This document shows positions 5,294-43,965 of a DNA stretch of 64,000 bases, piece by piece (position 1 is the first letter of the stretch; each line of letters opens with the position of its first letter). The notes under the pieces are model-generated. The model did not search any database and was not told the DNA's origin. It saw only the letters and a list, made by a program, of their open reading frames with translations. The position numbers and the translations under genes were made by a program. The DNA is from an uncultured bacterium (lineage in GTDB: Bacteria; Omnitrophota; Omnitrophia; Omnitrophales; Abzuiibacteriaceae): NCBI GenBank assembly GCA_964387845.1, contig CAYLXA010000005.1:96001-160000 (forward strand), read 5' to 3'.

Positions 5294-6136
5294 ATGGAAA
5301 ACGAAAAAGCAAAAGGCGCCATTTCAACGTTCTCGGCACTCCGAAAATGGGTAAGCGTCAAGAATTGGCTTGAGACAATCGGAGAGACGTGTATTCAATT
5401 TCTGACAGAGTCCGGCGCAATCGCTACCCTTTATTGGCGGGCGAACGTAGCGCTTTTTTCGAAATCGCTCAGAATCCGGGAAGTGTTTAATCAGATGTTC
5501 AAAATCGGCGTCGCCTCGCTGCCCCTTGTTTCGCTCACATCGCTTTTCACGGGCATGGTGCTCGCGCTTCAATCGGCCTATCAGCTGCAAAATTTCGGCG
5601 CGACTCAATTCACTGCCGATCTCGTTTCGCTTTCCACCGTTCGAGAACTGGGGCCGGTTCTCACGGCGCTCGTCGTTTCGGGCCGCGTCGGCGCATCCAT
5701 CGCGGCTGAGATCGGTACCATGAAAGTAACAGAGCAAGTCGACGCCTTACAGTCTCTCGCTGCGGATCCGATTGATTATTTGGTGGTGCCGCGCTACCTC
5801 GCTGCGGTTTTAATGCTCGTGGTTTTGACAATTTATGCGGACGTGGTCGGTGTTTTGGGGGGTTATGCGATTGCAATTTTTAAGCTCAAAATCAGCTCCT
5901 ATCAATATTTGCATCGAGCCATTGATATTTTGCAATTGAAAGACGTGTTTTCGGGGCTTGCGAAAGCATTTTTCTTCGGAATGATTATCTCAACCGTCGG
6001 ATGTTATTACGGATTTGTCGCCAAAGGCGGCGCGGAAGGTGTTGGCCAGGCAACCACAAAAGCGGTTGTGACGGCGCTTATTTCCGTTATCGCATTCGAC
6101 TGTTTTTTCACCGCATTGGTTCAATTCGCGTTTTAA
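5294..6136 (+). CDS. mlaE: Mla-type ABC transporter permease MlaE
   Basis: 'ELGPVLTALVVSGRVGASIAAEIGTMKVTEQVDAL' is the MlaE/YrbE signature. Confidence 0.9.
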   Translation: MENEKAKGAISTFSALRKWVSVKNWLETIGETCIQFLTESGAIATLYWRANVALFSKSLRIREVFNQMFKIGVASLPLVSLTSLFTGMVLALQSAYQLQNFGATQFTADLVSLSTVRELGPVLTALVVSGRVGASIAAEIGTMKVTEQVDALQSLAADPIDYLVVPRYLAAVLMLVVLTIYADVVGVLGGYAIAIFKLKISSYQYLHRAIDILQLKDVFSGLAKAFFFGMIISTVGCYYGFVAKGGAEGVGQATTKAVVTALISVIAFDCFFTALVQFAF

Positions 6137-6203
6137 GGGAGCAGAAATGAAATTTCTGCGACACTTATCCCGAGAGTAATCGAGGGATTACCTTAAGGAG
6201 TTT

Positions 6204-7019
6204 ATGGCACTCATTGAAATTTCGGATTTACATAAGTCTTTCGGCGGAAAGCAAGTGTTGAAAGGCGTGAATTTAAAAGTAAATTCCGGAGAAACGCTGG
6301 TCATTATCGGAACTTCGGGATGCGGCAAGAGTGTTTTATTGAAACACATCATGCGCCTTTTGGCGCCGGATCAGGGAAAAGTGCTCATTGAAGGGGTCGA
6401 TATTTTTTCGATCGGGCCGCAGCAGCTTAATCAGGTGCGGATGCAAATCGGCATGCTGTTCCAGAATTCGGCCCTGTTTGATTCGATGACGGTCGGCGAA
6501 AATGTCGGTTTCTCTTTGATTGAACACTACAAACTACCCAAGCACGAAATCGAAAAGCGCGTCAAAGAAAAGCTGCGCTTAGTCGGTTTGAGTGATATCG
6601 AAGACCTTTCGCCTTCGGACCTTTCGGGCGGCATGCGGAAACGGGTTGCCTTGGCGCGTGCGATTTGCACGGATCCGAAGATCGTGCTTTATGACGAACC
6701 GACGACCGGTTTGGACCCGATCATGTCGGATGCAATCAACGACTTGATTATCCGGCTTCAGAAGAAATTAGGAATTACGTCGATTGTGGTAACCCATGAT
6801 ATGAAAAGCGCTTATAAGGTAGGCGATCGGATGGCGATGTTGTATAATGGCGCCATCGTTGCCGAGGGAACACCGGATGAAATTAAAAATTCCGACAATC
6901 CGCTTGTGAAACAATTTATCACAGGCTCTTTTAAGGGCCCAATTGTGGTGGAGCCGACACATTATTTGGCACAGGCAGAGAACGGCAACGGGGATCAGGG
7001 AGACAGGCGACATGCTTAA
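6204..7019 (+). CDS. mlaF: Mla-type ABC transporter ATP-binding protein MlaF
   Basis: Walker A 'GTSGCGKS', the ABC signature 'LSGGMRKRVALAR', and Walker B 'LYDEPTTGLD'. Confidence 0.9.
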   Translation: MALIEISDLHKSFGGKQVLKGVNLKVNSGETLVIIGTSGCGKSVLLKHIMRLLAPDQGKVLIEGVDIFSIGPQQLNQVRMQIGMLFQNSALFDSMTVGENVGFSLIEHYKLPKHEIEKRVKEKLRLVGLSDIEDLSPSDLSGGMRKRVALARAICTDPKIVLYDEPTTGLDPIMSDAINDLIIRLQKKLGITSIVVTHDMKSAYKVGDRMAMLYNGAIVAEGTPDEIKNSDNPLVKQFITGSFKGPIVVEPTHYLAQAENGNGDQGDRRHA

Positions 7020-7791
7020 ATTAAAATCAGAACTCGCAGTCGGTATTTTTGTTGTAGTCGGTTTCATTTTGCTGACGGTTGTTGTGTTTGGCGTAAGCGG
7101 TATTTATTTATTCCGGCCGGGCTATCAGCTGAAAGCCGATTTCGATTATGTCAGCATCATCGATCGCGGCGCACCGGTGCGCTATGCGGGCGTCAAAATC
7201 GGCGAAATCAAGAAAGTCGACATTAACGAATCCATCGACGGAAGCGAAAAAGGGTCTGTGCGGCTCACGCTTTTTATTGTGAAGGGCGTTAAAATTTACG
7301 AGAACGACCTATTCAGCGTGCAGGGTACGCACATTATGGCGGAACCGCATGTTGAGGTTGAGCCTGCCAAGTCCGAGCGCGGCCGGCTTCTGAAGCACGG
7401 CGATCAGATTCGAGGCGCATCACCGGTTTCGATGGATGAATTGATTGTGCAGGGTAAGGAAATTGCCGGGAAGATCAATTCGTTTTTGACAACTGTTCAA
7501 AACAGCGTCAAAGATCCGAACAGCAAGGAGGCGCTGAGTAATGCGCTTGTCAATTTAAGTGAACTAACGGCTTCATTAAATACCATTATAAAAGGGCAGG
7601 AGCAGGAAGTTAGGGTAGGTCTTGCGAATCTCAATAAATCCGCAAATCAGCTCAATATATTATTGGAAAAAATGAATAAAGGTGAGGGCATGATGGGGCG
7701 CTTGATAGCCGATGACCAGCTCTACGATGAGCTTTTGGAGCTTGTCCGCGACATCAAGAAACACCCGTGGCGCCTTCTGAAGAAGGGGTAG
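7012..7791 (+). CDS. mlaD: MCE-domain protein MlaD
   Basis: An N-terminal TM helix followed by an MCE domain ('GAPVRYAGVKIGEIKKVD'). Start chosen at 'MLKLKSELAVGIF', overlapping the mlaF stop. Confidence 0.85.
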   Translation: MLKLKSELAVGIFVVVGFILLTVVVFGVSGIYLFRPGYQLKADFDYVSIIDRGAPVRYAGVKIGEIKKVDINESIDGSEKGSVRLTLFIVKGVKIYENDLFSVQGTHIMAEPHVEVEPAKSERGRLLKHGDQIRGASPVSMDELIVQGKEIAGKINSFLTTVQNSVKDPNSKEALSNALVNLSELTASLNTIIKGQEQEVRVGLANLNKSANQLNILLEKMNKGEGMMGRLIADDQLYDELLELVRDIKKHPWRLLKKG

Positions 7792-7872
7792 TTGAATTAT
7801 TATTGATTATTTTTATGATCCATTTCATTCAACCTTATAATTTTATTATTCAGAAAGGCAGGAACAATTCAT

Positions 7873-8889
7873 ATGGTTATCGCGTTAAGGCTTTTTATTC
7901 TCGTCATAGCAGGTTTGCTGGGCCATTACATGGGCAGTCATGCCAAAACAGGTTATCTGGCGGCGTATCCGTGGATGGGCTTGGCGCTCGGAATCGCGTC
8001 GGGGTTTTTGGTGATTTTGATCGATCTTTTTTTCAAGAAAGTCACCGTCCGCAACATTTTGTCGCTTTTGCTCGGAATCGCGCTCGGGCTTTTGATTCAC
8101 AAGCTGTTGATGGAGCTGATCGGCTACGCTGATTTCGACGAAAACTTCAAAAATCAATTTGCCATTATTTCGGCCGTCGTTTTTGCTTACTTAGGCGGCG
8201 TTACCATTCTCCGCGGCCAGGATGAATTTTCCCTGGTCCTTCCGTTTATTCAGCTCGAATCGAAAGACAGCGGCGAAGATATTATTCTGCTTGATACGAG
8301 TGTCATTATCGACGGCCGCATCGCCGATATCTGCGAAACCGCATTTCTAGGCGGCAAGCTCTACGTTCCGCGTTTTGTTTTAAAGGAGCTTCAGCTGATT
8401 GCGGATTCTTCGGATCCTTTGAAGCGTAACCGCGGCCGCCGCGGGCTTGAAATTTTAAATCGCATGAAACAAAATCCGATGGTGCAGATCCGGATTCACG
8501 AAACCGATTTTCCGGAAGTCCCGACGGTAGATGCGAAGCTCGTCAAACTCGGCCAAATGCTAAGCGGCAAAGTGTTTACGAATGATTACAATTTAAACAA
8601 AGTTGCGGAACTGCAAGGCGTGCGCGTACTCAATATCAATGAGCTTGCCAACGCTTTGAAGCCCATCGTGATGCCGGGTGAAGGCATGCAGGTGAAAGTC
8701 CTCAAGGAAGGCAAAGAATCCGATCAGGGTGTTGCTTATTTGGATGACGGCACGATGGTGGTTGTCGATGGCGGCAGAAAACGCATCGGCCAAACGATTC
8801 ACGTGACAATTACGAGCGTTCTCCAAACACAGGCAGGACGCATGATTTTTGCAAAGCCTTCGGATGAAGCGGCGCACAATCACCATTAA
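7873..8889 (+). CDS. yacL: YacL-like membrane protein with PIN and TRAM domains
   Basis: About four N-terminal TM helices, a PIN-like core ('IILLDTSVIIDGRI...'), and a C-terminal TRAM-like beta barrel ('GEGMQVKVLKEG...IGQTIHVTITSV'). It sits immediately upstream of ispDF as in Bacillus. Confidence 0.7.
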   Translation: MVIALRLFILVIAGLLGHYMGSHAKTGYLAAYPWMGLALGIASGFLVILIDLFFKKVTVRNILSLLLGIALGLLIHKLLMELIGYADFDENFKNQFAIISAVVFAYLGGVTILRGQDEFSLVLPFIQLESKDSGEDIILLDTSVIIDGRIADICETAFLGGKLYVPRFVLKELQLIADSSDPLKRNRGRRGLEILNRMKQNPMVQIRIHETDFPEVPTVDAKLVKLGQMLSGKVFTNDYNLNKVAELQGVRVLNINELANALKPIVMPGEGMQVKVLKEGKESDQGVAYLDDGTMVVVDGGRKRIGQTIHVTITSVLQTQAGRMIFAKPSDEAAHNHH

Positions 8890-13904: not shown

Positions 13905-15200
13905 TTACTTGCGGTTGACGGCTTCGGCGAACTGTGCGTCTATGCGCTTTGCGATTTTTGAAATGGCTTCTTCAAAAACGGAAGGTTCCGGCAGTAAGCT
14001 CACGACGGCGTAAGGCTCGCTCTGGAAATCATAAAAGTAGCCCGGATGTATGAGTACATGGTCTTTCTCGAGAAGTTCAAGCGCCCATTCTTCTTCGGTT
14101 TTGCTTTTCGGCAGTCTGAACACCGCGTACCATCCGCCTTCACCATTTAAAAGTTCAAACTGCCCGTTTTTCTCCAGCATTGCGCGATTGGCCGTCACGC
14201 GTTTTAAGATTTGTTTCTGCATTTTATCCTTTAATTTCATCCAATGATGAAGCGCGTTTTGAACCGGCGTGTTGACCGACAAGTAAGTGTCCGAAATGAT
14301 TTCAAGCCGCTCCATGGCTTGTTTCACCAGGTCTTTGGGGCCGTTCACTGCGATCCACGACAGCTTCATTTGCGGAAGCCCGAGGATTTTCGAAATGCCG
14401 CTCAAGGTGAATGTCAGCGATTTTTGGTTTCCGGCAAGCGACGGAATGCCTTCGATTTTTTTCTCCCACTGAAAATCCGAAAATACCTCATCGGAAATAA
14501 TGCAAAGCTGATTGCCTTCTGCGAATTGATTGAGTTTCGTGAGTTCGTCTTTCCGGATGTAAGACCCCGTCGGGTTGTTGGGATTGACCAAAACAATCCC
14601 CCGTGTCTTTTTTGGTTTAAATGATTTCCGGATATCTTCAAAATCGATTCGCCAAGACTCATTTTCATTAATAGAATCAGTCGTTTTATAGGAAATGAGT
14701 CTAGCCCCAACACCCTCATTGGTATTCTTTTTCTGTTGTTTTATGGAAGTGCTGGGGCAACCTTTTTGATACATCAACGCATAAGGCGCCAGCTCCACGT
14801 CGTTTAATTCAGCCAGGAAATGAAACAGCGGGTAGCTCGGCCGCGGCATTAGAATGTGGTCGCCGATGTTTGCGATCAGCCGGAACACCATCGAATAAGC
14901 TTCGCTCGTGCTGGCAGTCACGAGGATTTGGTTTGAATTGACATAAATGCCTTTCGAGTCATAATATTCGGCAATGGTTTCCCGGGCTTCCTGAAGGCCT
15001 AAAGGCGAGGGTTGATAGTCCAGGTTTTTGGAGTCCGTGAGGCTGGATAAAACGATGTCGGATGAATATTGCAGGCCGACTTGTGTGGGGTTCGATTCGG
15101 TCAAATCCAAAATTTCAGCGCCGCTTGCTTCAAGTTCCGACAAACGTGCCGTTAATTGATTGGGTGTTAAGGTCCAGTCTGTACGAGATGAAAATTGCAT
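13905..15200 (-). CDS. PLP-dependent aminotransferase, class I/II
   Basis: 'VNPNNPTGSYI...LCIISDEVF' are aminotransferase motifs. It is convergent with the OCD-family gene. Confidence 0.8.
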   Translation of the reverse strand: MQFSSRTDWTLTPNQLTARLSELEASGAEILDLTESNPTQVGLQYSSDIVLSSLTDSKNLDYQPSPLGLQEARETIAEYYDSKGIYVNSNQILVTASTSEAYSMVFRLIANIGDHILMPRPSYPLFHFLAELNDVELAPYALMYQKGCPSTSIKQQKKNTNEGVGARLISYKTTDSINENESWRIDFEDIRKSFKPKKTRGIVLVNPNNPTGSYIRKDELTKLNQFAEGNQLCIISDEVFSDFQWEKKIEGIPSLAGNQKSLTFTLSGISKILGLPQMKLSWIAVNGPKDLVKQAMERLEIISDTYLSVNTPVQNALHHWMKLKDKMQKQILKRVTANRAMLEKNGQFELLNGEGGWYAVFRLPKSKTEEEWALELLEKDHVLIHPGYFYDFQSEPYAVVSLLPEPSVFEEAISKIAKRIDAQFAEAVNRK

Positions 15201-15267: not shown

Positions 15268-15555
15268 ATGATCACGGTTGTTGCCAAAATTGAAGCCAAA
15301 GCCGGAAGAGAAAAGGAAGTGAAAGAAGTTTTGATGGCACTTGTGCCAATTACGCGCAAAGAAGACGGTTGCATGAATTATGACCTCCATCAGTATAACC
15401 AGCATCCCGGCCAATTCCTATTTTACGAAAACTGGCGCGATCAAGCCTCGCTCGATAAACATCTGGCATCGGCGCATGTGCAGGACTTGGTGAAGCGGTC
15501 AGGCGTGCTGCTCTCAAAACCCGCCGAAATCAAACTCTACCAACAAATCTCTTAA
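15268..15555 (+). CDS. Antibiotic-biosynthesis-monooxygenase (ABM) domain protein
   Basis: A 95 aa protein, 'MITVVAKIEAKAGREKEVKEVLMALVPITRKEDGCMNYDLHQ', consistent with a YgiN-like ABM fold. Confidence 0.7.
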   Translation: MITVVAKIEAKAGREKEVKEVLMALVPITRKEDGCMNYDLHQYNQHPGQFLFYENWRDQASLDKHLASAHVQDLVKRSGVLLSKPAEIKLYQQIS

Positions 15556-15615
15556 CCTCATTTCAAATTCCCAACATTTTTAACTGCGCTTCCCTCGGCT
15601 CTTTTTGTCCCCCGA

Positions 15616-15958
15616 GACCGGCAAGAATGGCTTGCCTTCAAGCACCGGCGGTCTTGACGCTCCAGCGGCGTCAAGCCGCCTGCCACTCACCACTCGGACC
15701 CGCTGCTTCACTTCGCGAAGCAAAGCGGCGGGACCAAGCTCCTCGTGGTTCCGTGAGCTGCCTTTCGGCAACCATTCTTGCCGGTCTTGATCAAAGCCTG
15801 ACAGTAAGGGATGTCTGGAGGCAGCTCGCGGAGCTCGTTGAAGCTTGGTTCTCCACCTTTTTGATGGGTGGAGATTCAACGAGTGAGCGCGCAGGCAGGC
15901 GCAAGCCGCAGGAGCTTGCGAACTGCCGGTGCCGGAAGACATTCCTTACTGTCAGGCT
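15616..15958. other. GC-rich non-coding block with nested long-range inverted repeats. Candidate structured ncRNA or a pair of MITE-like elements, unclassified.
   Basis: About 60% GC against ~48% nearby. 15618-15636 is complementary to 15767-15784. 15795-15814 is complementary to 15938-15957 (19 of 20 nt). There are internal hairpins at 15653-15675 and 15836-15880. The only ORFs are Arg/Ser/Pro-rich spurious frames. Confidence 0.45.
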
Positions 15959-16029
15959 AATATCATGGTGATGTCCCCGCTTGTGTTTCGGCTTTTAAAA
16001 TTTCAAAACTTCCTATACAATAACGACTT

Positions 16030-16644: not shown

Positions 16645-17593
16645 TTCGGCCGAAATTTTTGACCGCTACCTGACCCAGTATCAAACCAGCCGCGTTTTTT
16701 CAAGTTTCCTGCTCACCGGCGATGAAAACGAAAAGAAAAAGCAGCTCGCTTGTTTTATTGCCAAGAAATTAAATTGCGAAGAAAAAAAATTCAAAGAAGA
16801 TTGCGATTGCGGAAGCTGCCGCCGCATTGACTCGGATTCGCATCCGGACGTGAAATGGTTTGGTCTCGATGAGGACCGTGCCTCGATCAAAATCGAAGAA
16901 GTCCGGGAGCTCCAAAATTGGCTCAATTTGAAGTCTTACGAAGGGAAGGTCAAGGTTTTCATCCTGATCGATGCCGGCCGCCTGACAACAGAAGCGCAGA
17001 ATGCGCTCTTGAAGAGCCTCGAAGAGCCGCCGCCTCAGAGTTTGATCATTTTGATGACGGAACGGCGCGGCGATTTGCTCGATACGATCGTCTCACGGTG
17101 CCGTGAAATCAAGGTTCCGCCGTTTTCGGAGAAGGAAACCGCCGCAATTCTTAAAAAAGAAGGCGCCGGGTCGGAAGAGGCGCTCTATTTGACGCGTCAT
17201 TCATACGGAAATCTGGCAGAGGCGAAGGTGAAGCTTGCGAAAAAATGGTTTCAGGAAAAAAATAAAATCTTAAACCAGGTTTTACGCGATCCGGTGGTCG
17301 GATTTGATGCTTTCGCGACCGGAAAACGCGATGAATCACTCGAAACACTCAAACTTCTTTCCGAATGGCTGCGCGATGCAAGTGTTTTGGCGGCATCCGG
17401 CGATCCGTCACTCTTAATTCATGAAGACCGCGAAAATGATTTGTCGGATTTTGTGAAAAATAAGCCGCTCGATTCCGTTTTGCGCCTTTTTGATGAAGTT
17501 TCGGAAACCGAAAAAGCGGTTTCCGAGAACGCAAATCAGAAATTAGCTTTTCAAAGACTCCAGGTTGCGTGGAATACGTTTATCAAACAATGA
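16628..17593 (+). CDS. holB: DNA polymerase III delta' subunit
   Basis: 'ILIDAGRLTTEAQNALLKSLEEPP' and a zinc module 'CDCGSCRR'. It follows tmk, the conserved tmk-holB pair. Confidence 0.85.
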   Translation: MKSTIDSAEIFDRYLTQYQTSRVFSSFLLTGDENEKKKQLACFIAKKLNCEEKKFKEDCDCGSCRRIDSDSHPDVKWFGLDEDRASIKIEEVRELQNWLNLKSYEGKVKVFILIDAGRLTTEAQNALLKSLEEPPPQSLIILMTERRGDLLDTIVSRCREIKVPPFSEKETAAILKKEGAGSEEALYLTRHSYGNLAEAKVKLAKKWFQEKNKILNQVLRDPVVGFDAFATGKRDESLETLKLLSEWLRDASVLAASGDPSLLIHEDRENDLSDFVKNKPLDSVLRLFDEVSETEKAVSENANQKLAFQRLQVAWNTFIKQ

Positions 17594-17667
17594 GCTTCAA
17601 GCTGCAGGCTGCAAGCCACAAGCTTAAAGCTTTTAGCCTGGAGCCTGAGGCTTGTAGCTTGTAGCAA
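17593..17667. repeat. REP-like GC-rich palindromic repeat, copy A
   Basis: 'gagcttcaagctgcaggctgcaagcc...gcctgaggcttgtagcttgtagc' is built from gcttg(a/t)agc / ctgcagc units. Related copies occur at 35.6, 37.6 and 45.5 kb. Confidence 0.6.
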
Positions 17668-17675
17668 CTTTAATT

Positions 17676-29700: not shown

Positions 29701-29715
29701 ACTTTGAGGTGTGAT

Positions 29716-31350
29716 ATGCCCGCAAAAGAATTAACTTATTCAGAGGAAGTACGCGCCAAGATTAAAAAAGGCGTCGATATCCTCGCCAAGACCGTCAGTG
29801 TCACCTTGGGGCCGCGCGGCCGCAATGTGGTGCTTGACCGCAAGTTCGGTTCTCCCTTAATCACCAAAGACGGCGTCACCGTCGCGAAAGAAATTGACCT
29901 TGAGGATCCGTATGAAAATATGGGTGCTCAGATGGTCCGCGAAGTGGCTGAGAAAACATCAGATGAAGCCGGTGACGGAACCACCACCGCGACGGTTCTC
30001 GCGCAAGCGATCGTCTCGGAAGGTGTCAAGAATGTCACAGCCGGCGCCAATCCGATGGCCCTTAAGCGCGGAATCGATAAAGCCGCGGCGGCCGTCATTG
30101 AATCCATCAAGAAATTAGCGTCTCCGATTAAAGGCAAAGAAGAAATCAAGGCCATCGCTACGATCAGTGCCAACAACGACAGCGTGATCGGCCAGCTTTT
30201 GTCGGATGCGATGGAAAAAGTCGGCAAAGACGGCGTCATCACGGTCGAAGAATCCAGCACCACCAAGACGGAGCTCGAAGTCGTCGAAGGTATGCAGTTT
30301 GACCGCGGTTACATTTCGCCTTATTTCATCACCGACGCGGACCGGATGGAAGTCGTCCTCAAGGATCCCTTGATTCTCATTTACGAAAAGAAGATTTCTT
30401 CCGTAAAAGAAGTCGCCCCGCTCCTCGAGCAGGTAGTCGGCATTGGAGCGCCGCTTCTATTAATCTGCGAAGAAGTCGAAGGCGAAGCGCTTGCCGTTCT
30501 CGTCGTGAATAAAATCCGCGGAACGTTCCAGGCAGCAGCCATCAAGGCGCCCGGATTCGGCGACCGCAGGAAAGCCATGCTCGAAGACATCGCGATTTTA
30601 ACGGGCGGCAAATTCATTTCCGAAGACATCGGTGTGAAGCTCGAAAATGTGGATCTTTCGATGCTCGGAAAAGCCAAGCGTGTTGTGATCGATAAAGACA
30701 ACACCACGATCATTGACGGCGCCGGTAAAAAAGCGGCCGTGAAAGAGCGTTGTGAACTTATTAAGAAACAAATCGATAAATCAGATTCCAGCTACGACAA
30801 AGAAAAACTCCAGGAACGCCTCGCGAAGCTTTCAGGCGGTGTGGCGTTGATTAAAGTCGGTGCTACGACTGAAACCGAAATGAAAGAGAAAAAAGCGCGC
30901 GTGGAAGATGCGTTTCATGCCACAAAAGCATCCGTCGAAGAAGGTGTGGTCGCGGGAGGCGGTGTGGCGCTCGTTCGTTCATTGAAAGCGCTTGATTCTC
31001 TGAAGCTGGAAGGCGACGAGAAGGTGGGTGCCGAAATCATCCGCCGCGCGATCCAAGAACCGCTCCGTAAGATCGCGTCCAACGCGGGTTTCGATGCGTC
31101 TGTCGTGATCGGCAAGGTTCTGGAAGAGAAGGGCAACTTCGGCTTTAACGCTTATTCAGGCGAATACGGCGACTTAGTGGAGCAGGGAATTATTGATCCT
31201 GCAAAAGTGGTCCGCAAAGCGCTCGAGAATGCGTCAAGCATCGCGGGTTTGATTCTCACCACCGAAACCGGCATCGTCGAAAAGCCGAAAGACAAGGACG
31301 AAGAAAAGTCGAAGAAGAAAAATTCTTCACACGCTGGGCATTCTCATTAA
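29716..31350 (+). CDS. groEL: Chaperonin GroEL, copy 2 (with His-rich tail)
   Basis: A full Cpn60 paralogue. Its C-terminus is '[18 protein letters not shown]' instead of GGM repeats. Start taken at 'MPAKELTY'. Confidence 0.9.
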
Positions 31351-31359
31351 GTTTGATCA

Positions 31360-31392
31360 AGGGACAGTCCCATTTGGGACTGTCCCTTTTTA
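31360..31392 (+). terminator. Rho-independent terminator of groEL2
   Basis: Stem 'agggacagtccca/tgggactgtccct' followed by TTTTT. Confidence 0.8.
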
Positions 31393-31394
31393 CT

Positions 31395-31434
31395 AATGTA
31401 ATAAATTACATTAAATAATGTAATTTATTACATT
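31395..31434. repeat. Perfect 18 nt inverted repeat at the left island boundary
   Basis: 'aatgtaataaattacatt' - 'aaat' - 'aatgtaatttattacatt'. Confidence 0.7.
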
Positions 31435-31453
31435 GATATAATCAGCCTTATTT

Positions 31454-32485
31454 TCAGCTCAAGCCCGCTTCGAACGACAACGTTTCTCGCTTCAATTCCT
31501 TTCGCAATTCTTTTTCCGTAGGCAGGTATAACTTATACTTTGACGCAAAGATTTGCTTACTTCCTTTCGGAAGCGTGTAGCGTACGACCGCTTCCTTCTT
31601 ATCCTCGCACAAAATAAGGCCCACTGTCGGCTGGTCGGTTTTTTGTTTCAACTCGCGGTCATAGTAATTCACATACATTTGCATTTGACCGATGTCTTGA
31701 TGAGTTAGTTTTCCGATTTTCAAATCAATCAGCACAAAGCACCTGAGCAGCGTGTTATAGAAAACCAGATCGATATAGAAATGATCCCCATCAAGTGTGA
31801 TCCTTTTCTGCCGGGCGACAAACGTAAATCCTTTTCCCAGCTCGAGCAAGAACTTGGAAAGATTATCAATCAGCGCTTGCTCCAGTTTGCTTTCATACAG
31901 CTTCGGGTTGGATTCAAGGCCGGTAAATTCCAGAACGTACGGATCTTTAATCATGTCCGTGTAAGTTCGAAGGTCCTGGCCTTTCTTGGCTAATTTGAAG
32001 AGCCCTTTCTTATCTTTGCTTAAAGAAAGCCGTTCAAAAAGCAGGGAACCCTTTTGACGCTCCAATTCCCGGACTGACCAATTGTTTTTGACACATTCAA
32101 TTTCATAAAAGGAGCGTGCCTCCGGTCGTTCGACGCGCATTAAAATCCGGTAATGTGTCCAGCTCAATTCGTGACGCAGTGCGTCACGAATTGGGAAGGT
32201 AAGATAAAACTGACGAATATATCGCAAATTCGAATCATCAAAGCCTCTCCCAAAATCTCTTGTTAGTTTTTCCGAAAGCGACTTCAATAACGTCTCACCG
32301 TAAGTGGCACGTTTTTGGCCTTTTTGTTCTTCTTCCACAATTTCACGGCCGATTAACCAATAGGCCTGCACCATTTCGGTGTTGACGGTACGCGCAATGT
32401 TGGAACGTGCCGATTCTATGATCTGACGGATTTTGGAATAGACTTGGTCTTGCTTTGAGTTTTTCTTTTGAACTTCTTGCGGCAT
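31454..32485 (-). CDS. DUF1016 / YhcG-like PDDEXK nuclease-domain protein
   Basis: '...ARTVNTEMVQAYWLIGREIVEEEQ...' has the YhcG/DUF1016 architecture, with an N-terminal helical part and a C-terminal PD-(D/E)xK-like part. Confidence 0.7.
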   Translation of the reverse strand: MPQEVQKKNSKQDQVYSKIRQIIESARSNIARTVNTEMVQAYWLIGREIVEEEQKGQKRATYGETLLKSLSEKLTRDFGRGFDDSNLRYIRQFYLTFPIRDALRHELSWTHYRILMRVERPEARSFYEIECVKNNWSVRELERQKGSLLFERLSLSKDKKGLFKLAKKGQDLRTYTDMIKDPYVLEFTGLESNPKLYESKLEQALIDNLSKFLLELGKGFTFVARQKRITLDGDHFYIDLVFYNTLLRCFVLIDLKIGKLTHQDIGQMQMYVNYYDRELKQKTDQPTVGLILCEDKKEAVVRYTLPKGSKQIFASKYKLYLPTEKELRKELKRETLSFEAGLS

Positions 32486-32814
32486 GAGTAATTTGCCCTC
32501 CCTTTTTTGGTAGCCCTTCCGCCTTTTGGCTTCAGGACGATGCTTCTAACTGCGTGAAGCATCGGGCAAATCACTTAATGTGGTGTCTTTATGCGATGAT
32601 CGCAACCCTGTCCCAGCGCCACTTTGAAACAAAAACTTGTTTCTAATCAAAGCGCTGGACTGGACTCATTTCCTATAGACCGAACGGTTCCATTAATGAA
32701 AATGAGTCCTGGTACTGCTTGATGCGAGAGTGAAGGATATCATATGTCCGGTCCGTATCAAAATGATTTTTTTCAGTTAAATTAATCCCGAAAGGGTATA
32801 TTTTATTAATTCGA

Positions 32815-32918
32815 GTTAAATATTATACCTTATAAGGTATAATATTTTTAAATTATACCAAAAAAGGTATAATATTTTACTAAAGTAGTTGATATTATAC
32901 CCTTAATGGTATACTATT
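32815..32918 (+). promoter_or_regulatory. Three TATACC-N5/6-GGTATA operator palindromes upstream of hipB
   Basis: 'tataccttataaggtata', 'tataccaaaaaaggtata' and 'tatacccttaatggtata'. The third overlaps the first in-frame ATG. Confidence 0.6.
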
Positions 32919-32923
32919 CTGCC

Positions 32924-33145
32924 ATGGATTACATTGGAGAAGAAATTCAAAATTTGCGTAAAAGAGCAGGGCTCACTCAACGAGAATTCGCGAAGCGAGT
33001 GGGTGTGGGGCTTAGATTTATTCGTGATCTTGAACAAGGAAAATCTACCGTACGGCTTGATAAGGTAAATCAGGTGCTTGAATTTTTAGGGCATCATTTG
33101 GAGATTGTTGCCAACCGTGAACGAAAAAATATTCAGAAAAGCTAG
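32924..33145 (+). CDS. hipB: XRE-family HTH protein, HipB-like
   Basis: 'LRKRAGLTQREFAKRVGVGLRFIRDLEQGK' is a Cro/C1-type HTH. It is the first gene of a three-gene hip operon. Confidence 0.75.
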   Translation: MDYIGEEIQNLRKRAGLTQREFAKRVGVGLRFIRDLEQGKSTVRLDKVNQVLEFLGHHLEIVANRERKNIQKS

Positions 33146-33461
33146 AGTTAACTACAAAGATGAACTTGCCGGTTATTTACAAGAAACCGAGAATGGTTTT
33201 CAATTTCTGTATGATGAAAATTATTTGCGTTCCGGCGGACAGCCAATTTCTGTGTCACTTCCTTTAACGAATGAGCCTTACGAATCAAAAGAGCTTTTTA
33301 GTTTCTTCCGCGGACTTTTGCCGGAAGGTTGGTACCTCGATATCGTGAGTGCGGCTAAGAAAATCGATACCAATGATTCTTTCGGCCTGCTTCTGGCTAC
33401 CACAGGCGACACGATCGGCGCAGTGACCGTATATCCAATCCGGGAAAGCGATGAGTCCTAA
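33117..33461 (+). CDS. hipS: HipS-like protein (stand-alone HipA N-terminal subdomain)
   Basis: About 115 aa, similar to HipA N-terminal subdomain 1. The start is uncertain (GTG at 33117 or TTG at 33105). It overlaps the next gene by 11 nt. Confidence 0.6.
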   Translation: MNEKIFRKARVNYKDELAGYLQETENGFQFLYDENYLRSGGQPISVSLPLTNEPYESKELFSFFRGLLPEGWYLDIVSAAKKIDTNDSFGLLLATTGDTIGAVTVYPIRESDES

Positions 33462-34311
33462 TCTGTTTGAAGAAATGTTTGGCACGAGCGAAGCTCCTAC
33501 AATCCCACTTTCGTTGAAGGATGTTCCTCTTCAAGCGCAAGTGATGGCGGGGTATATGTCCATTTCAGGGGTGCAGCCAAAATTGGTGCTGAAATTGGAT
33601 AAGCGTAAAAATGAGCTGACGGTGGCTCAGACGGATGGTGAATATATTTTAAAACCGCAAATCCCGCATTTCCCCCAGACGCCCGAAAATGAAAACTGCT
33701 GTATGGATATCGCTCAGGCGTTTGAGATTGAGGTGCCGCCCCATTGCCTTCTTCCACTGAAAGACGGAAGCCTGGCTTATGCGGTGAAGCGTTTCGATCG
33801 TGTGAGCGGCGAAAAAATCAATCAAGAAAGCTTTTATCAAATTCTTGAAAAAAGAGACAAATATATGGGCTCTCTGGAACAAATCGGTAACAGCCTGAAA
33901 CAAATTTCCGTAGTGCCGGGCCTGGATGTTCAGCTTTTCTTTGAATTAGTCGTTTTCAATTTTCTGATCGGCAATGGTGACGCGCATTTTAAAAATTACT
34001 CCATTTCTTATTTAAAGGATGGCATCCGGCTTTCTCCGGCCTATGATCTGGTTTGTTCCAAGCTGGTGATTCCGGGCGATTCGGATTCCGCACTCACGAT
34101 CAATGGCAAGAAGAATAATCTTAGGCGGGGCGATTTTGATGTGTTGGCTGCTTATTTAAAAATTCCGGAAAAGGTTCGTTACGATAAGTTTGCAGGTCAG
34201 CTTGGAAAAATGGAGCAATTGATTCGAGCCAGCCAACTCTCGGCAGATTTTAAAAAGACGTTTATTCAAATAGTTTCTTCACGTTTTGATCGGCTTAAAT
34301 TGGTGAATTAA
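33451..34311 (+). CDS. hipT: HipT-like Ser/Thr kinase toxin (HipA C-terminal kinase domain)
   Basis: 'LIGNGDAHFKNYSI' is the catalytic motif and 'SPAYDLVCS' is also present. At 286 aa it lacks the HipA N-terminal subdomain, which is supplied separately. Confidence 0.7.
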   Translation: MSPNLFEEMFGTSEAPTIPLSLKDVPLQAQVMAGYMSISGVQPKLVLKLDKRKNELTVAQTDGEYILKPQIPHFPQTPENENCCMDIAQAFEIEVPPHCLLPLKDGSLAYAVKRFDRVSGEKINQESFYQILEKRDKYMGSLEQIGNSLKQISVVPGLDVQLFFELVVFNFLIGNGDAHFKNYSISYLKDGIRLSPAYDLVCSKLVIPGDSDSALTINGKKNNLRRGDFDVLAAYLKIPEKVRYDKFAGQLGKMEQLIRASQLSADFKKTFIQIVSSRFDRLKLVN

Positions 34312-34480
34312 GCGCGCTGAGCCCGGCACGATTAGAACAGGTACCAAAACATTACAAAGTAGTTAATCTAATTTCCTTATATTCACAGTTAAAATATGTA
34401 TATTTATATACATATATATGTATTGAATAGTACATTTATATGTATATAATAATACATATTATATTTGACATTAACACTTT

Positions 34481-34909
34481 TTGAGGGTAGATTTTCTCGT
34501 ACCGGAGGAAGCTGAATATACTAGATTAGTCAAATTTATGACCGCGGCCGGCTATAAACAAGTGACAGGCTATGGTTGGCAGAAAAAAGGAGAGGCAATC
34601 ATTTTTGATCTTTATGTCGGTAATTCGGTTTATTCAACGGAATTATTGTCATCGCCGCTTGAAAAAGGCGGCCATCAGAAATTGAAGGAATGGAATAAAA
34701 TTTATTTAGGTGCTTTAAATCCGGTAGATCTGATTATTTCAAAAATGTTTCGCGGCAGCGAAGTGGATGTCCAGGACAGTTTAGCGTTACTCAAGCATGA
34801 GAAAATTAGTATTGAGGAATTAAAGAAACGATACATCAAAACAGCCAAATATGATGTAAGCGAAGACAGGGTATTGAAAAATTTAGATACATTACTCAGG
34901 AGGCTTTAA
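34481..34909 (+). CDS. Hypothetical protein, first gene of an uncharacterised two-gene module
   Basis: The ORF begins at a TTG, with an alternative ATG at 34538. An AT-rich palindromic promoter region lies upstream. No confident family was assigned. Confidence 0.5.
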   Translation: MRVDFLVPEEAEYTRLVKFMTAAGYKQVTGYGWQKKGEAIIFDLYVGNSVYSTELLSSPLEKGGHQKLKEWNKIYLGALNPVDLIISKMFRGSEVDVQDSLALLKHEKISIEELKKRYIKTAKYDVSEDRVLKNLDTLLRRL

Positions 34910-34911
34910 TC

Positions 34912-35583
34912 ATGGATAAAAGTGATTTGTTGGACCAATTGGCTCAGCATGGCTATTCATTGATGAAGCCAAAATCAGCCGAGCCGGCCGAAAAACTGCT
35001 GGAGGCATTGCTGAAGCAGGATGATGCGCGTCTTTTGGAGGGCTTTCCGGTGGTGTTGGCCAACGCGTTTGACCAAAAAGACGGCTTGACGTGGGAAAAT
35101 CCTAAATGGAATGCTGAGGAATGGCAGGGAAAAAACAGAAGAAAATTGGTGGCCATGCTGTCTTTTAGTTATTATTTGTTTCGTTTATTTGGATTGGCGG
35201 AGTCTGAAAAGAAAGTTTTAGATTTGGTCAAGAAATTAAAAGGGGATAAAACGCTTCTTCATTTAACCGAATCTTTTGCGGAGTCCAAAGAAGTAGACTT
35301 GGACGGTGTCTCGCTATCAACGGAAAGATTAAAAAGCGCTTTCCGCCAATATGTATTAACGTCGGATCAAGGCGACGAAGTCGAAAAAAAGAAACGCGCG
35401 TTGGAATTAGAGCTGCTGCTTTCCGAACTGTTCAGCACGCGGCAAAAAGAACTGCTTGAGAAGCGGCTTGGTGGGGAGGAATTCACCAAAACAGAGCGTG
35501 AATACTATTACCGCGTCGTCAAAAAACGCTTGAAAGCGCTCGCGAGTGACGAACTTCACCAGATGGCCCGTTCGTTGGTTTAG
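34912..35583 (+). CDS. Hypothetical protein, second gene of the two-gene module
   Basis: It starts 3 nt after the upstream gene. The C-terminal 'RQKELLEKRLGGEEFTKTEREYYYRVVKKRLKAL' looks helix-turn-helix-like. Confidence 0.55.
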   Translation: MDKSDLLDQLAQHGYSLMKPKSAEPAEKLLEALLKQDDARLLEGFPVVLANAFDQKDGLTWENPKWNAEEWQGKNRRKLVAMLSFSYYLFRLFGLAESEKKVLDLVKKLKGDKTLLHLTESFAESKEVDLDGVSLSTERLKSAFRQYVLTSDQGDEVEKKKRALELELLLSELFSTRQKELLEKRLGGEEFTKTEREYYYRVVKKRLKALASDELHQMARSLV

Positions 35584-35595
35584 GGCGGGGGGTGT

Positions 35596-35633
35596 GGCTT
35601 GAAGCTTGAAGCTTGTAGCCTGCAGCCCACAAT
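35596..35633. repeat. REP-like repeat, copy B
   Basis: 'ggcttgaagcttgaagcttgtagcctgcagcc'. Confidence 0.6.
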
Positions 35634-36020
35634 CCTATCCGCCGAGCCTTACCCCTTACCCCTAAGTTTCAATCTGGACACAAAGCTTTTTGAGGCATAA
35701 ATCCTACTTAAATTGTGCCTGTACCTGTCCACCAAAATGATGCCTGGCACCTTTCTGTTAAGGATTCATATGCAACTCCTTTTTCCTGTAACATCAGGAT
35801 ATCAGGTGTTGCACTAGTAACTTGAACTCAAGCAGGTACCGAAGTAGAAATCCACTTCCTATCCGCTATACGTTGTTCGCGAACCAATAAAATAGTTGTT
35901 GAAATATAATATAAAGATTGTAAAATAATTACCTCACGCAAACAGTAAACCCCTCTCACGCCTTCACGCGCAAAATCAAACTAATTTCGTAATGCGTTCA
36001 CAAGAAAGGCGGATTTGCCA

Positions 36021-36809
36021 ATGAAAAAAGAAAAACTCATTTCTCAGAGGGATGGTTTACCAATTCGTTCAAGCGGTCCTTGGATCCGCAAAAAACATCA
36101 CTATTTAATCAGATATGCTGACATATTTACCCGAGGGATGAAGAACAAATGGGAATTGACGTACCTTGATCTTTTTGCCGGGCCCGGATGCTGCTTAATT
36201 GAGAAAGAGATGATCGAATTAGCCGGATCTCCGTTACTTGCATTAGGTTTTGATTTTAGGAAATACATTTTTATTGAACAGGATCATGATGACCTTGAAG
36301 CATTGAAACAGCGGTGCTCAAAATCACCAAAACTAAGCCAGATTCAATTCATAGAAGGGGATTGTAATAAGAATATTGATCAAATTCGATTGACGGGATT
36401 AACGCTGGCTTTTATCGATCCAACTGGTATTGACGTTCATTTTGAAACGATTAAACGACTCACCTCTTTAGGGCCGGTGGACCTGCTAATAAACATACCA
36501 TTTCACATTGATATCAAGCGCAACTTCACGAAGTATATAAAAACCCAACATAAAAAATTGGATCTCTTTCTTGGCGGTAAGGTACCGTGGGATAAATTGC
36601 ATCAAGAAAGGGATGTTTTAGAGTTATACAAAAAGCGAATAAAGGATTTGGGGTATCAAACCGTAGAATACAGCGACATAGTTGTCAGTAATACAAACAA
36701 AGTTCCTATGTACTTTCTTTTCTTTGCGTCCAAGCATTCGCGTGGTGTAGAATTCTGGAAGAAAATTACCAAGAAAGACGAAACCGGACAACTGGAGTTA
36801 GAACTCTAA
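36021..36809 (+). CDS. Three-Cys-motif partner protein TcmP family (MTase-like fold)
   Basis: '[11 protein letters not shown]' resembles SAM-binding motif I. 'FIDPTG' sits in the place of a DPPY-like motif. The gene is adjacent to a Gp37/Gp68 (DUF5131) gene, which is the defining context of TcmP. Confidence 0.6.
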
Positions 36810-36811
36810 GA

Positions 36812-37570
36812 ATGAGCGATAAATCAAATATCGAATGGACCGACGCGACATGGAATCCGGTAACGGGATGCAATAAAATCAGCCCCGGATGTAAAAACTG
36901 CTACGCCGAAACTTTCGCTGAGCGCTGGCGGGGAATTCCGGGCCATCCCTACGAACAGGGTTTTGACCTCAGATTATGGCCTGAGCGTGTCGGCTTGCCA
37001 TTATCGTGGAAAGAGCCGCGGATGATTTTTGTCAATTCCATGTCTGATCTTTTTCATAAAGATGTTCCGGATGACTTTATAGGGAAAGTATTTGAAACGA
37101 TGCTCAAAGCTAATCAGCATACTTTCCAGGTTCTGACCAAGCGGCCTGAGCGCATGGTTGAATGGACCAAGAAAACATTCGGCAATCAAAAATTACCGCG
37201 TCATATCTGGCTTGGTGTTTCGGTTGAAAACCAGGATTACGTATGGCGAATCATGTATCTTCAGCAAACACCGGCTCAAATCCGTTTTCTTTCGGTTGAG
37301 CCTCTTTTGGGGCCTGTTGTTTTAAAATCTTCAAATTTAAAAGGCATTCATTGGGTGATCGTGGGTGGCGAGAGCGGACACAGAGCCCGTCCTATGAATC
37401 CCGACTGGGCGCGTGATATCCGCAATCAATGCGAAAAATATGGCGTCGCTTTTTTCTTCAAACAATGGGGCGCTTTTAACGCGAAAGGCGAACGCGTTGG
37501 TAAAAAAGCCGCCGGCCGGGTTCTCGACCGCAGAACCTGGAACGAAATGCCAATTACAATCCCCGCCTAG
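36812..37570 (+). CDS. Phage Gp37/Gp68 family protein (DUF5131), three-Cys motif
   Basis: The N-terminus '[27 protein letters not shown]' is the family signature and includes a CX6CX2C motif. Confidence 0.7.
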
Positions 37571-37596
37571 AATCCATCTCTCGTGGTTTAAACGAG

Positions 37597-37625
37597 AAGC
37601 TTGTAGCCTGTAGCTTGCAGCTTAT
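37597..37625. repeat. REP-like repeat, copy C
   Basis: 'gaagcttgtagcctgtagcttgcagc'. Confidence 0.55.
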
Positions 37626-37744
37626 CATCATGATATAATTCCTATCGCGACGGCGCCCACATTGACCGCCGCGTGATGGCACTTGCGCCAGCGTTACCGC
37701 AGGTGCCTGCGAACGAAGTGACGCAGAATAAAGCGCAAGTGTCT

Positions 37745-38092
37745 ATGTCCGACATCAAGAAACTCACCGAAAAGATCAAGCAATTCCGCGACGAACGGGA
37801 TTGGAAGCAATTCCACAACCACAAAGATATGGCACTTTCACTTGTTCTTGAAGCCGCTGAACTTTTAGAACATTTCCAGTGGAAAACATTGGATGAAGTT
37901 GAAAAGCACGTGAAAACCTCAAAAGAGGATGTTTCAGATGAGCTTGGCGATGTCGCGATCTATCTTTTCGAGCTCGCCGATAACTTAGGGATAGACCTAT
38001 CAGAAGCGGTAGAAAGCAAGCTTCTTAAGAATGCCAGAAAATATCCTATACAAAAATCTAAAGGCACCATAACCAAGTACAATCAATTGTAA
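37745..38092 (+). CDS. MazG-like nucleotide pyrophosphohydrolase (all-alpha NTP-PPase)
   Basis: 'ERDWKQFHNHKDMALSLVLEAAELLEHFQWK...ELGDVAIYLFELAD' is the MazG/dCTPase-like EExxE/D signature. Confidence 0.7.
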   Translation: MSDIKKLTEKIKQFRDERDWKQFHNHKDMALSLVLEAAELLEHFQWKTLDEVEKHVKTSKEDVSDELGDVAIYLFELADNLGIDLSEAVESKLLKNARKYPIQKSKGTITKYNQL

Positions 38093-38099
38093 AGATTAA

Positions 38100-38876
38100 A
38101 TGCCCGGCAATGAATCTGCAGTAATAAAGTATTTGTTCAGAAATAAGAATCGTCTCGAGTTACCTCATTTAGGTTTAATAAAATCAATTGGGTTTCCAAA
38201 TGGACTCACAAATAACTACAAAGAAATAAAAAATGAAAATGAAATTTTAGAATGTTGCTCAGACAATGCTCGAAAAAAAGCAGATGTCTATATTAATGGG
38301 CAAGGCGTATCAATAAAACAATCAGGAGGAAGTTTTTCTTTTAATCGTTTGCAGCGTGCCGAGTTAATAGAAGTTTTTGCTAGTTTAATTTTTGATGCCC
38401 CTCATAATGTTTTAACTCAATTAGATAAAGAAGTTGAAAAATTTCATTTTGGAAAATTATCAGGACGTGGTAGGCCGTGGAAAGATTTTTTCTCAAATAA
38501 AGAATTTTATGCTTTAACAAATGCTCTTATGATGTTGCAATCTCCAAATTATGGACTTTCTCTTCATCCCGCTAAATTTATTCTGGAGGCTTCAAAAAAT
38601 TTAACAACCAATCCGAGTTTAAAAGTTTATACTTTTGATGAATATTTTGAACGTTATAACGAGTTTTTCAGGATTGCTATAAGACGTGTTTGGTTGGGGC
38701 AGAATAGTAAATCTGAGCATGGCCGTGCAAAAAGTCTAATAGCAAAACCTGAGAATGCAACCTGGGTCTTTAATACAATTTCCGGAACGCCAAGAAGTGG
38801 TTGGAAAGTTGATTTTCCAAAGTCGGAAAGAAGAACTGTGTATTATTTGATGATAGAAAAAGTAAATTCAAAATGA
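38100..38876 (+). CDS. Hypothetical protein, putative type II restriction endonuclease by context
   Basis: Very AT-rich, with no family recognised. It directly precedes vsr and overlaps it by 4 nt, upstream of the dcm-type methyltransferase. Confidence 0.4.
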   Translation: MPGNESAVIKYLFRNKNRLELPHLGLIKSIGFPNGLTNNYKEIKNENEILECCSDNARKKADVYINGQGVSIKQSGGSFSFNRLQRAELIEVFASLIFDAPHNVLTQLDKEVEKFHFGKLSGRGRPWKDFFSNKEFYALTNALMMLQSPNYGLSLHPAKFILEASKNLTTNPSLKVYTFDEYFERYNEFFRIAIRRVWLGQNSKSEHGRAKSLIAKPENATWVFNTISGTPRSGWKVDFPKSERRTVYYLMIEKVNSK

Positions 38877-40383: not shown

Positions 40384-40424
40384 ACCGTAAACTGGACACC
40401 GTCCGGCAGAAAAAAGGTTGTTGA

Positions 40425-41540: not shown

Positions 41541-41558
41541 CAAATCGAGGATCTTATC

Positions 41559-41711: not shown

Positions 41712-41745
41712 ATCGAACGCGTCTCGACGATGTGCGGAAGATATT

Positions 41746-43953: not shown

Positions 43954-43965
43954 TTGCTGCACACT

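Follow-up and report, generated by a model that had tools for sequence, protein, structure and literature searches.

In the window studied here, by which we mean the whole stretch of 64,000 nucleotides analysed (positions 96,001 to 160,000 of contig CAYLXA010000005.1, from an uncultured bacterium of the Omnitrophota), the spacer between an ABM gene and tmk contains two copies of a non-coding, branched repeat element, placed in opposite orientations at 15613-15958. According to our best reading, this element is not the gene of a local regulatory RNA. We hold it rather probable, without being sure of it, that the block consists of two old and independent insertions, inverted with respect to each other, of a non-autonomous and structure-dependent repeat, of the kind of the Rickettsia palindromic elements (RPEs) or of MITEs (miniature transposable elements with inverted repeats).

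The G+C content is 0.55-0.61 over 15500-15999, against 0.43-0.50 in the flanks, and within 15613-15958 two adjoining domains can be distinguished, each having a closing stem of about 20 bp. In the first one, 15615-15630 pairs with 15772-15787 (16 nt, 100% complementary); in the second one, 15788-15823 pairs with 15930-15965 (36 nt, 81% complementary), and the 20-mer at 15796-15815 is found again on the opposite strand at 15938-15957 with 1 mismatch, the chance expectation being 0. We folded the segment 15600-15975 as RNA: the plus strand reaches -208.4 kcal/mol, against -141.7 +/- 6 for dinucleotide shuffles (z = -11.1), and the minus strand gives z = -10.9. Folded as single-stranded DNA, the segment gives z = -11.3. 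A sliding fold scan shows that this block is the strongest-folding segment in the entire 64-kb window. An earlier note, made from the letters alone, had described here a GC-rich block with nested long-range inverted repeats, and this description holds; the inner hairpin which it quoted is confirmed at about 15834-15883. The two closing stems of about 19-20 bp which it announced are both present, and the domains that they close turn out to be copies of one element.

Copy A, read on the plus strand, aligns with the reverse complement of copy B and not with B itself (global score 33 vs -1), and A(+) and B(-), folded separately, give the same architecture. The two copies are only about 60% alike: their helices differ in sequence while their loops and junction strands agree. 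We call consensus strand the strand which carries GGCACCGGCGG ... GCUCCAGCGGC ... ACCAAGC ... CUCCGAGAGCUGCC. Its fold has, outermost, a closing helix of 15-25 bp whose sequence varies from copy to copy, then a small pyrimidine-rich internal loop (3x3) followed by a short helix GGCA/UGCC, and, as its core, a three-way junction bearing a hairpin, P2, and a longer arm, P3. The apex of P2 is GCUCC(A/U)GCGGC (GCUCCWGCGGC) and the stem under it covaries family-wide; P3 has a seven-nucleotide bulge, ACCAAGC, on its 3' side.

A covariance model of the element, R1, finds exactly two copies in the window. Copy A occupies 15613-15789 (177 nt, consensus strand +; R1 match 15612-15789, 112.3 bits, E 7e-28). 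The 5' arm of its closing helix, 15613-15636 (CGAGACCGGCAAGAATGG.CTTGCC), pairs with the 3' arm, 15767-15789, as given both by the inverted repeat, with its fully complementary 16-nt core, and by the fold. The junction motif GCACCGGCGG (15642-15651) precedes hairpin P2 (15647-15680, GGCGG...CCGCC), which has the conserved apex GCTCCAGCGGC at 15659-15669; arm P3 (15684-15757) has CACTCAC.../...GTGAG as its lower helix and, besides a variable hairpin, the conserved bulge on the 3' side at 15733-15739, and the conserved 3' junction strand TCCGTGAGCTGCC is found at 15750-15762, all of these on the plus strand. Copy B occupies 15795-15958 (164 nt, consensus strand -; R1 match 15792-15962, 136.2 bits, E 2.4e-34). 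Its parts, all on the minus strand, are the 5' arm of the closing helix, AGCCTGACAGTAAGGAATGTCT, at 15937-15958, which pairs with the 3' arm at 15795-15816 over 22 bp with one A.C opposition, the junction motif GCACCGGCAG at 15923-15932, hairpin P2 at 15894-15927 with its apex GCTCCTGCGGC at 15905-15915, arm P3 at 15825-15889, to which the previously quoted hairpin belongs, with the ACCAAGC bulge at 15843-15849, and the 3' junction strand TCCGCGAGCTGCC at 15820-15832.

We scanned one genome per GTDB species with the pattern GCACCGGCRG-N7-GCTCCWGCGGC, which is common to A and B. This gave 45 loci: about 31 are further true copies, and 14 were set aside as chance matches, being G+C-rich actinobacterial or other coding sequences devoid of the remaining motifs. 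The hosts are Candidatus Saccharibacteria (six loci), Liptonbacteria, Jorgensenbacteria and Parcubacteria/Paceibacterota, together with genomes named "Patescibacteria group", Candidatus Omnitrophota and several unclassified metagenome-assembled genomes (MAGs). One MAG, CAYJWM01, has at least 16 copies, with exact-pattern matches on 13 contigs (8-kb pieces were sampled). The copies are about 145-165 nt long. The 26 copies from which R1 was built all score 110-160 bits with it, and it also finds copies which do not contain the search pattern (L016, 98-255; L029, 2318-2508).

The fold is strongly supported by compensatory changes. In an unguided MAFFT alignment, RNAalifold gives 45 pairs, 33 of which show compensatory double changes. 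When 33 copies are aligned to the model, 94.9% of the cells are standard pairs and 36 of the 45 pairs are changed on both sides, figures which must be read keeping in mind that a model-fitted alignment is biased towards the structure. The covariation score of these 33 copies is 0.705, against 0.170 +/- 0.010 for column shuffles (0 out of 500 reach the observed value) and about 0.09-0.14 when the 3' partners are slid by 1-3 columns. Within one genome the cores are 83-92% identical, and most closing stems can no longer be aligned yet still pair; this indicates that the copies are old. BLASTN of the block against 72,556 plasmids gave no match, and of two pattern scans of viral contigs one gave nothing and the other a chance match rejected by the model. 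No description of the family was found in Rfam 15, nor in literature searches by host, topic and conserved strings.

Two variants of the element exist. At seven loci (L012 at about 880-1230 on the minus strand, L017, L018, L019, L039, L009 and L047) it lies within a larger conserved structure closed by an outer stem, its place and orientation there being fixed, for a total of about 330 nt. The motifs of this long form are GAGCGGGCAKGGUG on the 5' side and CGAGCGARG ... hairpin ... GAGCGGUAGC on the 3' side. At L028 (minus strand, about 1300-1480) the outer structure is present with only UUU in the place of the element. The long form represents either one RNA or DNA with a domain that is optional, or two repeat families, one nested site-specifically in the other. 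The second variant has about 50 extra nt of hairpins (ACGCCACAAGGCGTGGCGGGCAGGCCTGCC...GGCGGAC) between P2 and P3 (L007, 5307-5524; L022, 1819-1982; L027, 7520-7730); all three copies are in MAG CAYJWM01, and L022 appears to be truncated after the insert. Neither variant matches Rfam, and at E <= 5 the long form gives noise only.

The open reading frames (ORFs) which overlap the block, of 120, 114 and 61 aa, have no match in Pfam. Searched with phmmer against 1.84 billion representative proteins, the 120-aa ORF found only 3 matches, all of them to repeat proteins sharing a short repeat of the type "DEWLPKxSNRIV", and we read these as chance matches. We found neither the homologues nor the frame-preserving substitutions expected of a protein-coding gene, and the intergenic copies, mostly of length 3n+1, contain stops in every frame about as often as expected and show no preference for an open frame. 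We also ran the check proposed in the earlier note, a search of Rfam 15: over the whole window nothing reaches gathering scores, the block itself gives just noise at E <= 10, and 19 related loci give nothing but tRNAs. That note had considered the ORFs to be spurious and had found no RNase P RNA, tmRNA, signal recognition particle (SRP) RNA or 6S RNA in the block, and on both points these searches agree with it.

The copies are found in very short intergenic spacers, often 3-30 nt from a stop or a start codon, in operons. For the ABM-tmk spacer a comparison with relatives is possible. A metagenome contig with a tmk product 86% identical to that of the window (L048) has the same gene order, namely ornithine cyclodeaminase, aminotransferase (on the other strand), ABM, tmk and holB. 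Its spacer, however, measures 85 nt instead of 474 nt, has no model match and aligns with that of the window only over the last 45 nt or so before the tmk start. In two other relatives, L059 (MetRS 73% identical) and L060 (68%), the space upstream of tmk is no more than 50 and 73 nt, respectively, and again there is no model match. Among named matches, the best to the MetRS encoded in the window come from Candidatus Omnitrophica/Omnitrophota (59-62% identity), in line with an organism of the Omnitrophota. These short, element-free spacers show that the copies of the window are lineage-specific additions. The earlier note had hesitated between a large unclassified structured non-coding RNA and two tandem MITE-like insertions. 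The former is not supported as a single unit, as there are two separate units, both absent in the relative with the 86%-identical tmk. The latter was essentially right as to two insertions and as to their likeness to MITEs, but the copies are inverted rather than tandem, are only about 60% alike and do not form a typical MITE: each copy has terminal stems of its own sequence, target-site duplications are not detectable, and conservation concerns the three-way-junction fold with its loop and junction nucleotides.

A promoter-like site, TTTAAA-16-TACAAT (15994-16021), the only one in the region, lies downstream of copy B and ends 8 nt before the ATG of tmk. The spacing from the -10 box to the ATG is the same in L048 (2962-3000) and L059 (2905-2924), and there is no Shine-Dalgarno sequence between the site and the ATG, which suggests that the tmk mRNA may be leaderless. 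Given that this promoter-like site is downstream of B, the tmk transcript probably does not include the copies, which would instead be on the tail of the ABM transcript. We rejected the idea that the copies are terminators, as no U-run follows the closing stems on either strand (in the flanks of the copies as well as in a scan), and the idea that they are riboswitches, as the genes downstream of the copies are unrelated. The only public assembly with identical ABM and tmk proteins (L001/L002, Logan SRR15237813, contigs 2169 and 175) breaks within copy B, at 15897-15914. We dropped the notion that this break reveals a high-copy repeat, since the two contigs simply overlap by 18 nt and otherwise do not differ from the window. 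Strongly self-complementary repeats such as copy B may routinely break short-read assemblies.

Two copies have particular neighbours. At L004, a single uninterrupted ORF of 595 aa (5612-7399, minus strand) contains the element in antisense (6418-6578, plus strand) between a MNIO/BufB-type maturase domain for ribosomally synthesized and post-translationally modified peptides (RiPPs) and a HvfC/DUF2063 domain. We take these two domains to belong normally to two separate adjacent genes; the insertion may have fused them. At L020, a copy from Saccharibacteria ends within a few nt of a tRNA gene on the same strand (7774-7845 and 7843-8000, minus strand).

The element also resides in a coding sequence. 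At L043, from a MAG of Saccharibacteria, it was found, by the DNA pattern and not by an ORF, within the cysteine desulfurase gene iscS: a solved IscS is matched over its residues 7-96 by residues 10-98 of the ORF and over its residues 101-226 by residues 147-292, and the approximately 48 codons between the two parts are the element, in frame. The host gene is also frameshifted at 1609-1655, its C-terminal third continuing in another frame (1609-2064), which reflects either an assembly error or decay, that is to say the start of a pseudogenisation. A search of the protein collection with the L043 ORF shows that many IscS proteins of Patescibacteria are 430-490 aa long. Five homologues (P0001, P0002, P0003, P0005 and P0006) have an insert at the same site, with the peptide G-T-G-(G/R)-S-x-A-P-A-A ... 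S-E-(S/T)-F, which is the translation of GGCACCGGCGG..GCTCCAGCGGC ... TCCGAGAGCTKC. The DNA of three of these homologues gives full model matches (116, 113 and 84 bits) at the same position in the gene, nt 245-410. The in-frame residence known from RPEs is seen for one gene, iscS, in at least six lineages, where the element would be translated together with its host.

The four iscS copies of which we have the DNA show length differences of 0 or 3 nt and contain no stop, and their closing stems are recognisably related. Such homologous stems at one codon site suggest a single old insertion, vertically inherited. Since the iscS copies are in frame and the intergenic copies have no frame preference, the frame is preserved only where the element sits in a gene. 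P0021 and P0073 do not have the insert, and P0042 resembles the remnant of an internal deletion. Other IscS homologues have at the same surface loop a different insert, AT-rich and in frame, whose peptide looks like a translated palindrome (IKNLEFR...SKSYILNP) and which is also found at a second site; in our protein alignment A3 the insert columns are approximately 125-180 and 260-290. In-frame palindromic insertions seem to be common in these genomes.

We then considered which strand, and which nucleic acid, the fold belongs to. Watson-Crick pairs make up 1346 of about 1450 cells (about 92%). On the consensus strand one counts 13 G.U pairs, besides one invariant U.G beside the P2 loop, and 46 A.C or C.A oppositions, which would be G.U on the complement; the closing helix holds most of these oppositions, as a rule 5-7 bp away from its inner end. 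In 25 of the 26 copies the reverse complement has the more stable fold, with a mean advantage of 6.9 kcal/mol. Per-copy counts show that the asymmetry of the oppositions is equal in copies sense and antisense to the neighbouring genes, and this means that it is a property of the element and not of a mutation bias linked to transcription. By our own count, the consensus strand is sense to the flanking genes for 23 copies, antisense for 7 and ambiguous for 4. The near absence of wobble pairs, together with an equal stability as DNA, keeps open a reading at the level of DNA.

These observations lead us to the following scenario. A non-autonomous repeat of about 145-165 nt would have been inserted twice, in opposite orientations, between the stop codon of the ABM gene and tmk. 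The element is presumably mobile now, or was so formerly, and what is recognised in trans would, we infer, be a folded single strand of DNA or of RNA, because it is the fold and the loop nucleotides that are conserved and not the termini. Copies would persist where they do little harm, in short operon spacers and mostly with the consensus strand as the sense strand. The rare copy internal to a gene, with a length that is a multiple of three and without stops, would be read through as an extra surface peptide. At the present locus, the ABM transcript would most likely have both copies at its 3' end, folded there into two three-way-junction hairpins of very high stability. Their local effect is probably neutral, or limited to the shielding or the processing of this 3' end.

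Several results weigh against such a scenario. Part of the invariance of the 5' junction and of the P2 apex was fixed by the seed pattern; the copies found by the model alone vary at the pattern sites (GGAACC, CTCCGGCGG). No conserved terminal sequence was found among the copies. An all-against-all BLASTP of the flanking ORFs (about 250 kb of flanks, in 8-kb pieces) shows no recurrent neighbour, be it a transposase, a reverse transcriptase or a nuclease, and the matches that do recur are only spurious ORFs overlapping the elements. We did not detect any target-site duplication (mean flank repeat of 1.95 nt, against 1.82 nt for shuffled flanks, p = 0.28), the copies being old and their boundaries approximate, so that a duplication may have been lost. 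The divergence between copies of one genome gives, as far as can be judged from it, no sign of recent transposition. The wobble pairs favour the complement, yet the consensus strand is usually the transcribed one, and these two facts stand in conflict. Finally, the iscS copies keep 91% of their pairing, with double-sided changes at 25 of the 45 pairs (GGCA/UGCC, for instance, is replaced by GGAA/UUCC and GAAA/UUUC), and they keep most of the loop motifs. Were a resident copy selfish and nothing more, one would expect its decay; what one sees speaks for a fold selected at a fixed locus, for gene conversion or for a correction templated by the hairpin. Simple selfishness does not explain the preservation of the fold at the resident iscS site, and this is why we give the functional readings some weight: taken together they have an appreciable probability, which nevertheless stays clearly under one half.

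The first of them is that the element is a cis-acting RNA module useful to the host: a barrier to 3' exonucleases, a site where a double-strand RNase separates cistrons, or a docking site for an RNA-binding protein which recognises the loops CCAGC/CCAAGC. This would account for a fold and unpaired motifs conserved across phyla, including in copies long resident at one iscS site, for the position of the copies in operon spacers and for their sense orientation in 23 of the 30 informative cases. Moreover, closing helices of 15-25 bp are duplexes of the kind cut by RNase III in transcripts bearing Correia elements (PMC10969869). Close relatives, however, do without the element in the same spacer, the neighbouring genes have nothing in common, 7 copies are antisense, and one lineage of copies resides in a coding sequence, where processing would destroy the message. 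Moreover, the wobble pairs favour the opposite strand, and some 92% of Watson-Crick cells is unusual for a fold selected only as RNA. We regard this module as rather unlikely.

It is unlikely, too, that the element represents a new functional class of structured nucleic acids, the core and the loop motifs of which would be under purifying selection across at least two phyla and at the fixed site in the essential gene iscS. The preservation at this site through several lineages of Patescibacteria is the pattern expected of something that must stay active. The class could consist of a small intron-like or self-processing RNA, of a site-specific homing element or of a docking module for a conserved protein, the long form possibly showing an optional outer domain.

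A third explanation, to which we give little credit, is a recombination or replication site acting as folded single-stranded DNA, similar to attC or to the ends of IS200/IS605; it would be recognised by a recombinase or by an HUH enzyme, and its orientation would be set by replication. Nearly all the pairs are of the Watson-Crick type, the DNA folds as strongly as the RNA, the stems vary in sequence and are conserved in structure, and there are neither shared terminal repeats nor target duplications, all of which such a site would share. The orientation bias, in genomes with genes largely co-oriented with replication, would also agree with it (in the window nearly all genes are on the plus strand and the cumulative GC skew rises throughout). 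It is weakened by the lack of any recombinase or transposase in the flanks that we compared, and by the strand on which the pairing is better, which is complementary to the one that co-oriented genes would expose on the lagging-strand template.

Of an intron-like or self-processing RNA in the strict sense, in which the closing helix would join the ends, the junction would be the active site and copies in essential genes would need their fold so as to be removable, one would expect what is observed at iscS, where structure and motifs are kept at a fixed site on the sense strand in the classic pattern of introns and inteins. The invariant nucleotides cluster at junctions and loops, and the family includes a long form with peripheral domains. 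Rfam 15, however, yields no ribozyme or intron even at E <= 10, and 7 copies are antisense to their genes. The four iscS copies, free of stops and with length differences of 0 or 3 nt, satisfy what translation requires and splicing does not, and the unrelated palindromic in-frame inserts at the same loop indicate that the site tolerates an extra peptide. We would consider this RNA very improbable. As to one or two genes for trans-acting small RNAs, or a protein-coding gene, specific to this locus, the very stable fold and the frames open across the block speak for them, but we find them scarcely credible: neither copy has a promoter or a terminator at its borders (the single promoter-like site lies downstream of B and is directed at tmk), close relatives do not have the block, other copies occur in unrelated contexts and inside a gene, the ORFs have neither Pfam match nor real homologue among the 1.84 billion representatives, and the intergenic copies, not multiples of 3, have stops in every frame.

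Elsewhere in the window, the aminotransferase gene (13905-15200) contains on the minus strand, at 14658-14762, an in-frame insertion of 35 codons (GCPSTSIKQQKKNTNEGVGARLISYKTTDSINENE) which is absent from the 77%-identical orthologue of L048. Its DNA has two pairs of inverted repeats, with stems of 12 and 10 bp, and its fold is only modestly better than that of shuffles (z = -2.4); possibly we have here a second in-frame palindromic insertion near the block, unrelated to the element. The region from about 31400 to 44300 has a lower G+C content (33-45%, against about 48-52% elsewhere) and encodes a YhcG/DUF1016 PDDEXK nuclease, a HipA-like kinase, a DUF5131 protein, a C-5 cytosine methyltransferase, a nucleotidyltransferase and several ORFs without family; it looks like a defence or mobile island. 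Some of its AT-rich spacers fold unusually well (32701-32821, 34291-34381, 44101-44131). Three segments fold 3-5 standard deviations better than their G+C content predicts: 17491-17670, at the holB/metG junction; 31261-31440, at the end of the ORF 29704-31350, which faces the convergent YhcG gene; and 43861-44130, in a stretch of 1.3 kb without ORFs of at least 150 aa, before an IMPDH-like gene.

The genomes of Omnitrophota and of the candidate phyla radiation are tiny and streamlined, and are thought to be poor in repeats, yet they share this branched repeat of about 150 nt. If it is selfish, it extends the remodelling of proteins by palindromic elements, as in Rickettsia, to a large part of the tree of uncultured bacteria, and it provides a marker of horizontal exchange between ultra-small bacteria. 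If its fold is kept because it is active, it is a candidate for a new class of RNA or single-stranded-DNA elements. The covariance model would allow annotators to mask the spurious Arg/Ser/Pro-rich ORFs and the contig breaks caused by copies.

With the structured RNAs of Rfam 15 (RNase P, 6S, SRP, tmRNA, HEARO/omega, ROOL/GOLLD, self-cleaving ribozymes, riboswitches) the element shares the GC-rich intergenic block, the covarying helices and the conserved junction nucleotides, and it matches none of them. The attC sites of integrons also have a conserved structure with a varying sequence, a folded single strand and strand asymmetry. Unlike the element, they are simple imperfect hairpins of 57-141 nt flanking cassettes beside an integrase, a context absent here. 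The REP sequences (repetitive extragenic palindromes) and REPINs mobilised by their RAYT transposase, and the miniature elements derived from IS200/IS605, are recognised as hairpins, make no target duplication, show an orientation bias and often occur as inverted pairs. The element differs from REPs, which are simple hairpins of 20-40 nt with a conserved 5' GTAG, in being five times longer and branched; its size and its fold do not agree with a short palindrome headed by a 5' tetranucleotide, there is no recurrent neighbour that could be a cognate RAYT, and no Y1/HUH gene was seen near the copies in the comparison of flanking ORFs.

Classical MITEs possess terminal inverted repeats whose conserved sequence comes from a parent insertion sequence (IS), have target duplications (TA for Correia) and are usually AT-rich. 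Like them, the element is small (below about 300 bp) and non-coding, its frames being open no more than its composition allows, and it has many dispersed copies with differences of presence and absence (CAYJWM01; L048, L059, L060). Unlike them, it has termini that differ between copies, the pairs of 15-25 bp ends being unalignable between most copies of one genome, its conserved part is internal, it shows no target-site duplication, and no parent IS has been identified. The Correia elements of Neisseria and the ERIC sequences (enterobacterial repetitive intergenic consensus) resemble it in being small, non-autonomous, dispersed, mostly intergenic and co-transcribed, with ends which pair into a duplex that an RNase can cut (PMC10969869).

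The RPEs, finally, are palindromic elements of about 150 bp, often inserted in frame in unrelated genes (PMC10969869). They share with our family the length of about 150 bp, a non-coding origin, multiple copies and a stable hairpin-like fold (PMC10969869 for the RPEs); both are found between genes as well as in frame in housekeeping genes, to which they add a peptide, and neither has a known transposase. In contrast with the RPEs, our family is hosted by Omnitrophota, Patescibacteria and others and not by Rickettsia, is GC-rich and not AT-rich, and has a branched three-way junction, invariant loop and junction nucleotides and a deep compensatory variation across phyla. It is clearly intragenic at one gene site (iscS) among 34 copies, against nearly half of the copies in some RPE families. 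The host range and the base composition being different, the likeness to RPEs would best be understood as an analogy, and not as membership.

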